Below, piece by piece: positions 58,025 to 64,000 of a stretch of 64,000 nucleotides of DNA. How positions within the stretch are numbered: the first letter of the stretch is position 1; each line of letters begins with the position of its first letter. The DNA is from Betaproteobacteria bacterium (lineage in GTDB: Bacteria; Pseudomonadota; Gammaproteobacteria; Burkholderiales; SG8-39): positions 449 through 64,448 of the forward strand of contig JANXUV010000015.1 in the NCBI GenBank assembly GCA_025356085.1, read 5' to 3'. The position numbers and the translations under genes were made by a program. The notes beneath the pieces are model-generated. The model ran no database searches, was not told the origin of the DNA, and saw only the letters and a list, made by a program, of their open reading frames with translations.

Positions 58025-59587
58025 GTGAGCCTGGACGCCGTCGTCGTTGGCGCCGGCCACAATGGCCTGGTCTGCGCCTGCTACCTGGCGCGCGCGGGTC
58101 TCAAAGTGAAAGTGCTCGAGCGACGTGGCGTCGTCGGCGGCGCCGCGGTCACGGAAGAATTTCATCCCGGATTCCGCAATTCGGTCGCCGCCTACACCGT
58201 CAGCCTGCTGCAGGCGAAGGTGATCCGTGAACTGCGCCTGGCGGAGCACGGCTTGCGCATCGTCGAGCGGCCGCTGGCGAATTTCCTGCCGCTCGACAAT
58301 GGCTATCTGAAGGTCGGCGGCGGCCTGGAGGCGACGCAGAAGGAATTTTCGAAGTTTTTCGCGCGCGACGCGAAGCGCCTCCCGCACTACTGGGCCAAGC
58401 TCGAGCGCGTCGCCAACGTGCTGCGCGACGAGGTCCTCGAAACGCCCCCCAACGCCGGGGGAGGGGTTAGGGATCTCCTGGGTCTTTTTCGTTCCGGACT
58501 GAGAATCAAGAAGCTATCCGTTGATGCGCAACGTGACCTGGTCGGGCTCTTTACCCGGAGTGCGGCGGAGTGGCTGGAGGACTGGTTCGAGTCCGAGCCG
58601 GTGAAAGCGGTGTTCGGCTTCGATGCGGTGGTCGGCAATTACGCCAGCCCCTACCACCCGGGCACCGCCTACGTGCTGCTGCACCACTGCTTCGGCGAAG
58701 TGAACGGCAGGCGCGGCCAGTGGGGCCATGCCATCGGCGGCATGGGCGCGATCAGCGAAGCGCTGGCCGCGGAAGCCCGCCGTCTCGGCGTCGAGATCGC
58801 GTGCGACGCGCCGGTGGCGCGCGTACAGCCGGGTGCGGTGACGCTTGCCGACGGCCGCGAGTTCGCGGCGCGCGCGATCGTCGCCAACGTCAATCCGAAG
58901 ATGCTGTTCCTGCAGATGGTCGATGCCTCGCTGCTCGAATCTGATTTCCGCGAACACATGCAGCGCTACAAGTGCGCGTCCGCCACCTTCCGGATGAATG
59001 TCGCCCTGTCCGCGCTGCCGAAATTCTCTTGCCTGCCCGAGGACGGGCCGCACCATGGCGCGGGCATCATCCTCGCGCCTTCGCTCGGCTACATGGATCG
59101 CGCCTACCTGGACGCGCGCGCCTCGGGCATCGCCCGCCAGCCGATTGTGGAAATGGTCATCCCGAGCACGCTGGACGACAGCCTCGCGCCCAAGGGCGCG
59201 CATGTGGCGAGCCTGTTCTGCCAGCACTTTGCGCCCGACGCGGACTGGGGCGGCCGCAAGCAGGAAGCCATCGACCGTATCTTCGACGTGGTCGAGTCGC
59301 ATGCACCGGGTTTCCGGCGCAATGTGATCGCGCACAGCGCGCTCTCGCCGGCCGACCTGGAGCAGGTGTTCGGACTTACGGGCGGCGACATCTTTCACGG
59401 CCAGCTCTCGCTCGACCAGCTCTGGTCGGCGCGTCCGATGCTCGGCCACGCCGACTACCGCTCGCCGGTGAAGGGGCTCTATCTCTGCGGCTCCGGCGCC
59501 CACCCGGGCGGCGGCGTCACCGGCGCGCCCGGGCACAACTGCGCGCGCGAAGTGCTGCGGGATTTCGGCAAACGCATGCCGGCTTGA
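58025..59587 (+). CDS. FAD/NAD(P)-dependent oxidoreductase, phytoene desaturase (CrtI)-like family
   Basis: DAVVVGAGHNGLVCACYLARAGLKVKVLE dinucleotide-binding N-terminus, 520 aa. GTG start 3 nt after the glmS stop. Confidence 0.8.
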   Translation: MSLDAVVVGAGHNGLVCACYLARAGLKVKVLERRGVVGGAAVTEEFHPGFRNSVAAYTVSLLQAKVIRELRLAEHGLRIVERPLANFLPLDNGYLKVGGGLEATQKEFSKFFARDAKRLPHYWAKLERVANVLRDEVLETPPNAGGGVRDLLGLFRSGLRIKKLSVDAQRDLVGLFTRSAAEWLEDWFESEPVKAVFGFDAVVGNYASPYHPGTAYVLLHHCFGEVNGRRGQWGHAIGGMGAISEALAAEARRLGVEIACDAPVARVQPGAVTLADGREFAARAIVANVNPKMLFLQMVDASLLESDFREHMQRYKCASATFRMNVALSALPKFSCLPEDGPHHGAGIILAPSLGYMDRAYLDARASGIARQPIVEMVIPSTLDDSLAPKGAHVASLFCQHFAPDADWGGRKQEAIDRIFDVVESHAPGFRRNVIAHSALSPADLEQVFGLTGGDIFHGQLSLDQLWSARPMLGHADYRSPVKGLYLCGSGAHPGGGVTGAPGHNCAREVLRDFGKRMPA

Positions 59588-59614
59588 CCTTCCTATGATG
59601 GGAGGGTCCAATGT
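59584..59614 (+). promoter_or_regulatory. MerR/CueR-type promoter-operator of copA (TTGACC - 19 bp - CAATGT)
   Basis: 19-bp spacer carrying the imperfect dyad GACCTTCC-N6-GGGAGGGTC (7 of 8 arm positions complementary). It closely resembles the E. coli PcopA CueR box TTGACCTTCC...GGAAGGT. Confidence 0.6.
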
Positions 59615-59623
59615 GGCGCCACC

Positions 59624-61909
<2,286 letters not shown>

Positions 61910-61911
61910 CG

Positions 61912-62358
61912 ATGAGAAAACGCCAACTGCCGCTCGAACATGCCGATGCGCTCGTGCGGGGCCTGCTCGACATCGGGCGCACCTCGAAGGAAAGCGGTGT
62001 CTCGGTGAAGATGATCCGCCACTACGAGGCCATCGGGCTGCTGAAGAACGTCGCCCGCACCTACGCCAACTACCGCGTCTACTCGGACAAGGACGTGCAC
62101 ACGCTGCGTTTCATCAAGCGCGCTCGTACGCTCGGTTTCTCGATGGACGACGTTCGCGAACTGCTGGCGCTGTGGGAGAACAAGTCGCGCCCGAGCGCCT
62201 CGGTGAAGAAGATCGCCGGCGGTCACATGCAGGACCTGAAGCGGCGCATCGTCGAAATGCAGTCCATGGTGGCGACGCTGGAGCACCTGACCCACAACTG
62301 CCACGGCGACGGCCGGCCCGACTGCCCAATCCTGGACGACCTGGCGCATGCCGCTTGA
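61912..62358 (+). CDS. cueR: MerR family Cu(I)-responsive regulator (CueR/HmrR-like)
   Basis: SGVSVKMIRHYEAIGLL...YRVYSDKDVHTLRFIKRARTLGFSMDDVRELL and the C-terminal metal loop CHGDGRPDCPI. A GTG at 61954 would give the more usual length. Confidence 0.88.
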   Translation: MRKRQLPLEHADALVRGLLDIGRTSKESGVSVKMIRHYEAIGLLKNVARTYANYRVYSDKDVHTLRFIKRARTLGFSMDDVRELLALWENKSRPSASVKKIAGGHMQDLKRRIVEMQSMVATLEHLTHNCHGDGRPDCPILDDLAHAA

Positions 62359-62385
62359 CTCTCCCACCATGTCAAGGTCGATACT
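62355..62385 (+). promoter_or_regulatory. Second MerR/CueR-type promoter (TTGACT - 19 bp - GATACT)
   Basis: Same architecture as the copA promoter, with about 29 of 43 ungapped positions identical by hand alignment. The -35 overlaps the cueR stop codon, and the right half-site AAGGTC is present. Confidence 0.55.
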
Positions 62386-62394
62386 GGCTGCACC

Positions 62395-62505
62395 ATGAAA
62401 ACTTGCTGCGAACTTGCTTCCTGTGCTTGCTCGCGGTGGGCCCTCAAGTCCGTCTGGAGCCGCTTAGCCTGCCTGTGGCGCCATGACCTGAGCCGCCTCG
62501 GCTGA
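62395..62505 (+). CDS. Hypothetical Cys-rich 36-aa small ORF (MKTCCELASCACSRWALKSVWSRLACLWRHDLSRLG)
   Basis: Its ATG lies 9 nt after the -10 of the second CueR-type promoter, the same geometry and the same CACCATGA context as copA. It ends 11 nt before the SD-less cupredoxin gene. Below the ORF-track size cutoff. Codon third positions are less GC-rich than the neighbouring genes. Confidence 0.25.
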   Translation: MKTCCELASCACSRWALKSVWSRLACLWRHDLSRLG

Positions 62506-62516
62506 CGCGAAACACC

Positions 62517-62951
62517 ATGTCGAGAATCGCGATCCTGGTTCTGACGCTGGCGCTGGCTGGCGGTGCCTGGGCGCGCGAGGACTTCGGCCGTCCGGGCGAC
62601 CCTGGCGAGGCGACGCGCACCGTCCGCATCGGTATGGCTGACACCATGCGCTATTCACCCTCGGAACTAACGGTCCAGCGCGGCGAGACGGTGAAATTCG
62701 CCGTCGTCAACAATGGCAAGCAGAAGCACGAGATGGTGATCGGCACGATGAAAGAGCTGAAAGCGCACGCTGAGATGATGAAGAAGCATCCCGGCATGGA
62801 GCACGACGAACCCCACATGGTGCACGTCGCGCCGGGCAAGAACGAGACCCTGGTCTGGCAGTTCACGAAGGCGGGTACCTTCTATTTCGGCTGCCTCGAA
62901 CCGGGACATTTCGAGGCCGGCATGATTGGAAAGGTGAAGGTCGTCAAATGA
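62517..62951 (+). CDS. Periplasmic cupredoxin-fold copper protein (CopI-like)
   Basis: Signal peptide MSRIAILVLTLALAGGAWA. Type-1 Cu ligand pattern H...C-x4-H-x4-M (FGCLEPGHFEAGM). His/Met-rich stretch KAHAEMMKKHPGMEHDEPHMVH. Confidence 0.8.
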   Translation: MSRIAILVLTLALAGGAWAREDFGRPGDPGEATRTVRIGMADTMRYSPSELTVQRGETVKFAVVNNGKQKHEMVIGTMKELKAHAEMMKKHPGMEHDEPHMVHVAPGKNETLVWQFTKAGTFYFGCLEPGHFEAGMIGKVKVVK

Positions 62952-63226
62952 GAGCCGTATTCAGCGCCGTTCTCCTTGCGCTCACGTTACCGTCCCTCGC
63001 GCAGGCGCTGGCCGACGGCGAGGTCCGCAAGATCGACAAGGCGGCCAGGAAGATCACGCTGAAACACGGCAATATCCAGAGCATCGACATGCCGCCGATG
63101 ACCATGGTGTTTCAGGTGAAGGACCTGGCCTTGCTCGACAAGGTGAAACCAGGCCAGAAGGTGAAGTTTCAGGCGGAGATGATCGGCGGAGCGGCGACCG
63201 TGACGCAGATCGAGCCGGCCAAATAG
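62948..63226 (+). CDS. cusF: Periplasmic Cu(I)/Ag(I)-binding protein, CusF family
   Basis: Signal peptide, the segment KITLKHGNIQSIDMPPMTMVFQV (compare E. coli CusF ...WPEMTMRF...), ATGA overlap with the upstream gene. Confidence 0.82.
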   Translation: MRAVFSAVLLALTLPSLAQALADGEVRKIDKAARKITLKHGNIQSIDMPPMTMVFQVKDLALLDKVKPGQKVKFQAEMIGGAATVTQIEPAK

Positions 63227-63241
63227 GCATAGAATCGCTGC

Positions 63242-63616
63242 ATGCTGTCGCGCTCGACTATTCGCAGAATCACGCGGTCACTGCTGGCGACGATGCTGTT
63301 CGCGCAAGGCGCACTCGCTGCGAGCGTGTGTGACATGCCGGAGCGTTCTGCGGCAAAGGCGATCGCGTCTGGAGCCATGCCCTGTCATCAGACGGCGCCC
63401 GCGGAGCGCAACGCGAATCTATGCCTTGCCGATTGCCTGAGCTTCGACCAGAGCACGGATACGCCGCAGCTTCCCGCGCTGGCGCCTTATCCGGCGCCGA
63501 TGCTGGTGGTGGAGATCGCGGCCCCCGCGCTGCCGCGATCCGAGTTTGCGGGCCACTGGCTCGCCGCCAGCACGGCTCCACCGCCCCGAATACTGTTCCA
63601 GTCCCTCCTGATCTGA
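63242..63616 (+). CDS. Hypothetical secreted Cys/His-containing protein (possible CzcI/CusD-type metal-efflux accessory protein)
   Basis: 124 aa with predicted signal peptide ...LLATMLFAQGALAASV and four Cys (CDM, MPCHQ, CLADC). Lies directly upstream of the outer-membrane factor gene. Family could not be assigned. Confidence 0.55.
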   Translation: MLSRSTIRRITRSLLATMLFAQGALAASVCDMPERSAAKAIASGAMPCHQTAPAERNANLCLADCLSFDQSTDTPQLPALAPYPAPMLVVEIAAPALPRSEFAGHWLAASTAPPPRILFQSLLI

Positions 63617-63684
63617 TTCTCCGCGCGCTGTAATACGGTGCCGGCATCCGCCGGCATTGGAACGCTTCACGCCCGGAGAATGTC

Positions 63685-64000
63685 ATGCGACTACTGCTGT
63701 GTTTACTGGCTGCGCTAGCCGCCGCCACAAGCGCGCCGCTTGGCGCACAGATCCGCAACATGGAGTCAGCGCTCGATCAGCAATTGCAGGAACTCGTTGC
63801 CGAGGCTGCGCGCAATAGCCCTGAAGTCCGGGCGGCAGGCAATGAGCGCCTTGCCGCACAGCATCGGGTGTCGCCCGCAGGGGCGCTCGACGATCCGATG
63901 CTCGAGGCCGGCGTGCTCAATGCACCGCTGAAAGGATCGGACACCTTCAGGCGCGAAGACATGACCATGAAGATGCTCGGTCTGTCGCAGAAAATCCCGT
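63685..64000 (+). CDS. Outer-membrane efflux protein (TolC/CusC/CzcC family), N-terminal fragment running off-window
   Basis: ATG 63685 behind GGAGA. MRLLLCLLAALAAATSAPLGAQ...VAEAARNSPEVRAA...DDPMLEAGVLNAPL...REDMTMKMLGLSQKIP is typical of the CzcC/CusC N-terminus. Open frame to the window end, so absent from the ORF track. Confidence 0.8.
   Translation, partial: MRLLLCLLAALAAATSAPLGAQIRNMESALDQQLQELVAEAARNSPEVRAAGNERLAAQHRVSPAGALDDPMLEAGVLNAPLKGSDTFRREDMTMKMLGLSQKIP

Follow-up and report, generated by a model that had tools for sequence, protein, structure and literature searches.

A predicted CueR-type promoter at the cueR stop codon of an uncultured betaproteobacterium, and the small cysteine-rich reading frame coupled to it

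In Escherichia coli, the copper sensor CueR sits on a dyad within an over-long 19-base-pair (bp) spacer, and Cu(I) reshapes the DNA, enabling sigma-70 polymerase. A single CueR serves several promoters in this organism, PcopA and PcueO among them, and CueR–DNA and CueR–RNA polymerase structures are available (1Q05, 4WLW, 6LDI and 6XH7). The present study concerns a candidate promoter of this class, referred to as P2, at the stop codon of the cueR gene in a 64,000-nucleotide (nt) stretch of DNA (the window) from Betaproteobacteria bacterium (assembly GCA_025356085.1, contig JANXUV010000015.1, positions 449 to 64,448); the promoters and genes located below by window coordinates all lie on the plus strand. 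We read P2 as a MerR-class promoter activated by the CueR encoded immediately upstream, with CueR binding, copper dependence, the start site and the translation of a small cysteine-rich open reading frame (ORF) behind it all predicted from sequence, and we assign this reading a probability of roughly 0.78.

Several other described systems resemble parts of this locus. In Rubrivivax gelatinosus, which carries copA-copR-copI-copJ, full copper induction of CopI needs CopR, and CopI is still made in a copA mutant; the gel shifts address PcopA only, and the copI promoter was not mapped (PMC4600104, PMC11591864). In Vibrio parahaemolyticus, CueR, rather than the CusRS two-component system, drives the cusF-headed cusFABC besides copA (PMC12341060). 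Copper-sensing upstream ORFs have been reported as well, i.e., CruR/DUF2946 of Bordetella pertussis, with a CXXC and a C-terminal RAPP (PMC9426467), and CutF of Rhodobacter capsulatus, which is exported and has a Cu-binding motif (CxxxC) and a C-terminal stalling-like, proline-rich motif (PMC9973294).

P2 consists of a −35 hexamer TTGACT (62355–62360), a 19-bp spacer (62361–62379) and a −10 hexamer GATACT (62380–62385), exactly where an earlier reading of the letters alone (the original prediction) had placed them, and is followed by 9 nt, GGCTGCACC, and an ATG at 62395. The copA promoter, PcopA (59584–59614), is built in the same manner, with TTGACC (59584–59589), a 19-bp spacer, CAATGT (59609–59614) and 9 nt, GGCGCCACC, before the copA ATG at 59624, so the claim that an ATG stands 9 nt past the −10 in both promoters is correct. 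Likewise, both −35 hexamers hold the TGA of the preceding ORF, which is that of a flavin adenine dinucleotide (FAD)-oxidoreductase ORF for PcopA (59585–59587) and that of cueR for P2 (62356–62358), and the ungapped identity, put at about 29 of 43 positions, was counted as exactly 29/43. When the PcopA 43-mer was slid across both strands of the window, P2 gave the top non-self score, 29, with a runner-up at 24 and a mode of about 11; the likeness is far above chance. The PcopA spacer contains the dyad GACCTTCCTAT-G-ATGGGAGGGTC, with a self-complementarity of 18/23, whereas the predicted CueR operator at P2 (62357–62379), recognized by its self-complementarity and by the clade consensus half-site, is the imperfect dyad GACTCTCCCAC-C-ATGTCAAGGTC, with 12/23.

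P2 was scored with a matrix of 48 distinct promoters that fit TTGACy-19 bp-(−10) and lie upstream of copA or cueR in other genomes; for the promoter collection, 80 loci encoding relatives of the window CueR were fetched (loci are given below by their L numbers), and every site at a cueR stop codon was excluded from the matrix input. The consensus of the 48 promoters is TTGACCCTCCCATCATGGGAGGGTTCAAACT. PcopA scored 38.0 bits, the window maximum, and P2 36.2 bits, whereas the best unrelated position reached 8.6 bits; with the pattern-fixed positions masked, only PcopA and P2 attained the score of P2 among about 128,000 window positions. The left half of the P2 dyad, GACTCTCCCAC, matches the clade consensus half-site GACCCTCCCAT at 9 of 11 positions, and the right half, read as GACCTTGACAT, at 8 of 11. 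P2 therefore shows the over-long 19-bp spacer between −35-like and −10-like hexamers that marks the MerR/CueR class and, within that spacer, a dyad operator matching the CueR box, though imperfectly. A divergent promoter on the minus strand of the same dyad (15.9 bits, −10 CAAGCG) was considered and rejected, as it is without the A2 and T6 of a −10. The cognate sensor is encoded directly upstream: cueR (61912–62358) specifies a Cu(I)-responsive MerR-family regulator that scores 154.8 bits against the TIGR02044 cut-off of 147.4, and in an alignment to E. coli CueR the equivalents of Ser77, Cys112 and Cys120 are conserved, so that a Cu(I)-type CueR is present in this genome by both score and ligands.

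The position of P2 is kept among relatives. A P2-type promoter overlaps the cueR stop codon in L001, L002, L003, L010, L018, L019, L037, L081, L082, L083, L088, L163 and L164, and lies 4–9 nt past it in L009, L011, L012 and L015. In L007, the P2-type box and small ORF follow a second copA rather than cueR, and upstream of the box in L087 no cueR was detected within the 195 nt of contig available. The original prediction had proposed a comparison of both promoters across related genomes; a promoter of P2 design at the cueR stop, or 4–9 nt past it, is retained in about 18 related loci. When 17 loci were anchored on TTGAC, the 31-bp promoter carried 1.50 bits of information per column, compared with 0.53 bits for the preceding 25 nt, which are cueR coding sequence, and 0.62 bits for the following 25 nt, i.e., P2 is conserved above its flanks in orthologous loci. 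Information is highest at TTGAC, at CTCCCA, at the AG in the right half-site and at A2 and T6 of the −10, and the 19-bp spacing is invariant. On comparative grounds, this pattern is the phylogenetic footprint of a promoter and not merely of a binding site. The genes behind the promoter differ among loci: a Shine–Dalgarno sequence and a CopI-like gene directly follow the P2-type −10 in L018, and a Shine–Dalgarno sequence and a His-rich DUF4396 membrane protein follow the promoter in L009, L011, L012 and L015. As judged from their annotation, the cargo of the post-cueR promoter varies by locus and is always copper-related, the position being kept while the cargo is swapped. We also note that the post-cueR CueR box of L009, L011, L012 (at 4449) and L015 (at 4430) is a near-perfect palindrome, CTCTCCCATCATGGGAGAG.

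The short distance from the −10 to the ATG recurs well beyond P2. In all fetched loci together, distinct CueR-type promoters of at least 25 bits number 117, and in 33 of them an ATG that opens an ORF lies 6–9 nt after the −10; these form a sharp peak with a mode of 6, set apart from a broad group at 22–50 nt. This spacing, from its distribution, is a design feature that would give near-leaderless mRNAs, not a scar of duplication, and CueR regulons in this clade seem habitually to produce near-leaderless transcripts, that of copA included. The established spacing rule for sigma-70 promoters places the predicted P2 transcription start at the A 7 nt after the −10 (62392), so that the AUG would be preceded by a leader of 3 nt (ACC). 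The copA mRNA, whose ATG stands 9 nt after the PcopA −10 (59609–59626), would carry a leader of about 3 nt and no Shine–Dalgarno sequence.

A Cys-rich ORF of 36 codons, MKTCCELASCACSRWALKSVWSRLACLWRHDLSRLG (62395–62505), begins at the ATG of 62395; it is the first cistron of the predicted P2 transcript and was overlooked in the original prediction. Its closest orthologues are MNTCCETKLCTCSISSLRALWNRLTCLWRNTLSQMG in L083 and MKTCCEILPCACSISSFRALWNRLACLWRNTLSQLG in L084 and L085, and distant loci have a version of 41–47 amino acids (aa), usually exactly 42, e.g., MNCEQCLGTGPFLCGPAHALRGILAGLSRAWRGLLASLAQLG. The family, 36–47 aa in length, follows the pattern M-x-C-x-x-C-L ... R-x-W-R ... L-x-Q-L-G and then a stop. 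In 12 of the 13 intact members examined (the window and 11 loci), the ORF stands directly behind a CueR-type promoter, with the ATG 6–9 nt past the −10; the lone exception is the L084/L085 contig pair, in which the promoter has been lost. An exhaustive profile search of 1.84 billion representative proteins returned only 13 matches at E ≤ 0.001, 12 of them 41–47 aa long, and all 11 of the sequences fetched from these 41–47 aa matches fit the family pattern. Six small ORFs scanned against Pfam and NCBIfam gave no match at E ≤ 1, and none of the homologues returned with precomputed Pfam domains has a match.

The family was judged to be coding from its conserved length, the synonymous variation at its C-terminus and a third-position bias of its substitutions. 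The terminal Q-L-G-stop is encoded by varying Leu and Gly codons and by all three stop codons, and substitutions at the first, second and third codon positions number 66/45/112 in a set of four close members and 463/384/596 in a set of eight. The window ORF is the most diverged copy, with 17 non-synonymous vs. 4 synonymous codon differences from L083, and the coding case is therefore weaker for it than for the family. An AlphaFold model (mean predicted local distance difference test score 72) shows a CxxC tip of ten flexible residues and, after it, one helix, residues 11–41; RNA folding of 62392–62530 gave z = −0.31 relative to shuffles, so this is not a structured leader. The ORF has decayed in some relatives, its ATG having become ATA in L002 (731–790) and L037 (4456–4515) and only 17 codons being left in L003 (1897–1950), where P2 is nonetheless intact in all three; the peptide is thus not indispensable to the promoter.

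From these alignments, a tight coupling links the promoter at the cueR stop to an unannotated Cys-rich micropeptide mostly overlooked by gene callers. As aligned and modeled, this peptide has a CxxC or a cluster of Cys at its N-terminus, a single amphipathic helix, and the conserved R-x-W-R ... Q-L-G-stop. That the promoter exists chiefly to launch this leaderless, copper-induced micropeptide of an undescribed family (36–47 aa) is a tentative proposal, which we regard as possible rather than probable. By analogy with known upstream ORFs, the micropeptide could be a leader peptide that senses copper and gates the translation or transcription of copI, cusF and the cus genes behind it; alternatively, it could be a minimal cytoplasmic Cu(I) carrier or a modulator of CueR.

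In the mechanism that we favor, a CueR dimer would bind the imperfect 23-bp dyad (62357–62379) that lies between TTGACT, a good −35, and GATACT, a usable −10, whose 19-bp separation would be too long for unaided sigma-70 RNA polymerase, and Cu(I)-loaded CueR would distort the spacer such that the two hexamers become aligned. Transcription would begin near 62392 and give an almost leaderless mRNA with the 36-codon Cys-rich peptide as its first cistron, from which ribosomes would move on to the CopI-like cupredoxin (62517–62951), probably by termination–reinitiation, and then, via an ATGA overlap, into the cusF-like gene (62948–63226). Reinitiation is a reasonable guess in the window because the cupredoxin ATG lies 11 nt past the small-ORF stop with no evident Shine–Dalgarno sequence, unlike in L083 and L084, where such a sequence precedes the cupredoxin. 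Transcription would probably extend into a 124-aa gene and a cusC-like efflux gene, with no terminator in sight. Read-through from PcopA would also reach these genes, and P2 would add expression and partly uncouple the periplasmic branch from copA-cueR. Both routes appear open because neither a terminator-like site nor an ordinary sigma-70 promoter was found from cueR to the window end; over 59000–64000, the terminator scan gave only two overlapping candidates inside copA, and the consensus scan gave no ordinary sigma-70 promoter. As no terminator-like site follows cueR, read-through is likely. The claim that the downstream copper genes share a regulon with copA appears to hold for the cupredoxin and cusF-like genes, which the 36.2-bit score of P2, the regulator's passing of the CueR cut-off with its ligands conserved, the cross-genome conservation and L018 would place under copA's sensor; for the efflux genes, it is only probable.

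A number of observations weigh against P2 as a CueR-activated promoter. Its right half-site is weak, with TCAAGG in place of GGGAGG, a weakness typical of the P2 class across loci, and its self-complementarity is low, so that the affinity for CueR may be low. A 3-nt leader is awkward for either leaderless or Shine–Dalgarno-dependent initiation, and the start may differ from 62392. Some relatives, moreover, manage without P2. In L084 and L085, near-identical contigs whose cueR is 87–88 % identical, about 43 nt with P2 are absent and the cueR TGA overlaps the small-ORF ATG, and in L086, which has neither P2 nor the small ORF, cueR overlaps the copI-like ATG as ATGA. In L089, L090 and L092, the boxes have decayed to 6.8–17.5 bits and there is no small ORF. 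As relatives have lost P2 or hold degenerate versions, it is dispensable. In addition, every P2-carrying locus is metagenome-assembled, and read-through from PcopA alone could account for copper induction of the downstream genes. Loss of P2 goes with closure of the gap and a switch to co-transcription from PcopA, as expected if P2 and read-through serve one purpose. L084 (1545–1740), L085 (2324–2520) and L086 (2450–2520) are natural P2-deletion variants.

Taken to its end, the argument from read-through would mean that P2 is inactive in this genome and that one long operon, transcribed solely from PcopA, takes in the small ORF and the cupredoxin and cusF-like genes. The lack of a terminator-like site after cueR, the weak right half-site, and L084, L085 and L086, in which the next gene overlaps the cueR stop and read-through suffices, all speak for it; however, P2 nearly equals PcopA on a matrix from other genomes, is conserved above its flanks in 17 loci, and has an ATG 6–9 nt past its −10 in 12 of 13 small-ORF loci, which is sensible only with initiation there, and we consider this outcome unlikely. 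Somewhat less likely again is that the site is served mainly by another MerR-family metal sensor (CadR, PbrR or ZntR-like) encoded elsewhere, rather than by CueR. CadR of R. gelatinosus also binds PcopA and has a part in inducing CopA and CopI, and the left half TTGACTCTC resembles the cadA promoter of that organism, TTGACTCTAAACC (PMC11591864). Nevertheless, the half-site CTCTCCCA is common in bona fide copA promoters of the clade (e.g., L020, L028 and L029), more than 15 genomes have the site in physical linkage with cueR, and no second MerR paralogue was detectable by tblastn with CueR in the 64-kilobase window. The overlap with the cueR stop and the conserved position relative to cueR might instead suggest that the box is no promoter at all but a CueR site directed at the transcript arriving from copA-cueR, serving as a roadblock or an autoregulatory brake. 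This we hold to be highly improbable, since the −35 and the A2/T6 of the −10 are conserved beside the dyad at exactly 19 bp, neither of which a pure binding site needs, and since the box follows a second copA in L007 and has no cueR in the 195 nt upstream in L087.

The same evidence bears on the origin of P2, which the original prediction had taken for one half of a duplicated, paralogous module. This interpretation is not borne out: P2 shares a mean of 22.3/31 positions with orthologous P2s and 19/31 with its own PcopA, and the PcopAs of other genomes (mean 21.1/31) are no farther from it than its own PcopA, while PcopA matches its close orthologues at 26–29/31. A recent paralogous duplicate should show an intra-genome likeness above that to orthologues, together with shared flanks; P2 shows neither, and its similarity to PcopA is confined to the functional elements, the flanks being unrelated. 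Each class has its own signature across genomes, i.e., CCCAC with a degenerate right half and either GAGACT or GATACT for P2, and CCCAT, GGGAGGGT and CAATCT for PcopA, and the retention of these signatures implies that any duplication is older than the clade. The post −10 string GCnnnCACCATGAAA, cited as a sign of duplication, also occurs in the copA promoters of L004, L024, L026 and L037 and in a CueR-type promoter of L028, and it is this genome alone that has the PcopA −35 on a stop codon, the hexamer lying about 10–25 nt past the stop in L001, L004, L013 and L036. A recent within-genome copy of the PcopA module, alike by descent and not by function, would explain the 29/43 identity, including the post −10 string and the ATGA. 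However, the orthologue distances, the distinct class signatures in other genomes, the lack of similarity beyond the functional elements, and the presence of P2 at this position in sister genomes make such a copy hardly credible. The resemblance is, by these sequence comparisons, one of shared function (regulator, polymerase and near-leaderless design), and P2 as a promoter activated by the adjacent CueR remains the reading that we prefer.

The genes around P2 form a copper locus. copA (59624–61909) encodes a copper-exporting P1B-type ATPase that is past the cut-off for both TIGR01511 (570 bits) and TIGR01525 (629 bits), and its N-terminus has YHS and HMBD domains rather than a classical HMA (MxCxxC) domain (59624–59900). 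No copZ-like gene was seen near copA, which leaves room for another cytoplasmic Cu(I) donor. The cupredoxin, with a signal peptide and matches to Pfam Copper-bind and Cupredoxin_1, is named CopI-like only, because the CopI models are its best-scoring NCBIfam models but it lies below both curated cut-offs (NF047895, 84.6 vs. 200 bits; NF051440, 107.7 vs. 280 bits). Its family has 3911 homologues at E ≤ 1e-10, and no CopI name occurs among the best 120 of these 3911. The cusF-like gene, whose ATG overlaps the cupredoxin stop (ATGA), encodes a periplasmic copper-binding protein (Pfam CusF_Ec, 96.7 bits). The cupredoxin–cusF pair is very widespread in metagenomes (481 relatives confirmed, 80 loci kept, L083–L162). 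In most of these 80 loci, nothing upstream of the cupredoxin scores above 18 bits as a CueR box, so that CueR control is limited to the cueR-linked subset and is not a trait of the cupredoxin family; the module presumably has some other control in most lineages.

Further downstream, a TAGAAT (63230–63235) is followed after 6 nt by the ATG (63242) of an ORF of 124 aa without family (63230–63616 with the hexamer), which is also downstream of P2, and then by the start of an outer-membrane efflux protein (CusC/OEP-like, 63685–64000), cut by the window end and only weakly matched by Pfam OEP (18.2 bits vs. a cut-off of 22). The same gene order runs into a 466-aa OEP gene in L081 and L082. A homologue of the 124-aa gene (about 125 aa) in L010, L007, L019, L081 and L082 is preceded by TGTCATAAT, an extended −10, and 6 or 7 nt before the ATG (GTG in L082). 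From this arrangement, the TAGAAT is probably a separate near-leaderless, CueR-independent promoter inside the operon. The 124-aa protein gave no Pfam or NCBIfam match, and its hydrophobic N-terminus, several Cys and an APPPR near the C-terminus recall the CruR layout. An Rfam scan of 59300–64000 gave no match at E ≤ 1. Elsewhere, loci with another copA type (about 45 % identity) have two back-to-back CueR-type promoters on opposite strands with their −35s a few nt apart; such divergent CueR-controlled pairs occur in L007 (1759/1764) and also in L016, L020, L022–L025, L029 and L033.

As a promoter, P2 is an ordinary addition to a well-known class, and its coupling to an unannotated Cys-rich micropeptide is the modestly new part. 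In an uncultured clade of soil betaproteobacteria, it would bring a periplasmic cupredoxin/CusF module, probably together with a Cus-type efflux pump, under the cytoplasmic Cu(I) sensor CueR, and its operator, clean and conserved, can serve to predict regulons there. If the peptide does sense or carry copper, it would be a very small new player in copper homeostasis and another case of regulation by a nascent peptide.

We found no published description of a −35 conserved on the stop codon of its regulator, of the near-leaderless design or of the micropeptide. The likeness to V. parahaemolyticus cusFABC is limited by a different genomic arrangement there, for which neither a cueR overlap nor a micropeptide is reported. 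R. gelatinosus shares the gene order of ATPase, CueR-type regulator and periplasmic cupredoxin, a link that rests on the published papers. However, its second downstream gene, copJ, has a CxxC motif, whereas the gene here is cusF-like, no small ORF is described for it, and the cupredoxin here falls under both NCBIfam CopI cut-offs. With CruR and CutF, the window shares layout only, i.e., a short first cistron of a copper operon with a Cys motif and a conserved C-terminus at the stop, in this case with copI, cusF and cusC-like genes downstream. The small ORF does not belong to CruR/DUF2946 or CutF, as it has no Pfam or NCBIfam match and ends in Q-L-G rather than in RAPP or a proline-rich motif. 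Unlike them, the peptide is unrelated in sequence, much shorter (36–47 aa), without a signal-peptide-like segment and not exported, and it would be translated as a leaderless cistron behind a CueR promoter, its regulatory role being hypothetical.

In promoter design, P2 parallels PcopA and PcueO of E. coli, which share with the window a 19-bp separation of −35 and −10, a dyad in the spacer, a CueR with Ser77, Cys112 and Cys120, and the use of one regulator for multiple copper-defence promoters. The half-site consensus here is GACCCTCCCAT, whereas the E. coli box is ACCTTCC. Unlike in E. coli, however, the −35 of P2 lies on the stop codon of its own regulator, a placement conserved across a betaproteobacterial clade, and the P2 transcript is predicted to be nearly leaderless, with the micropeptide ORF first.

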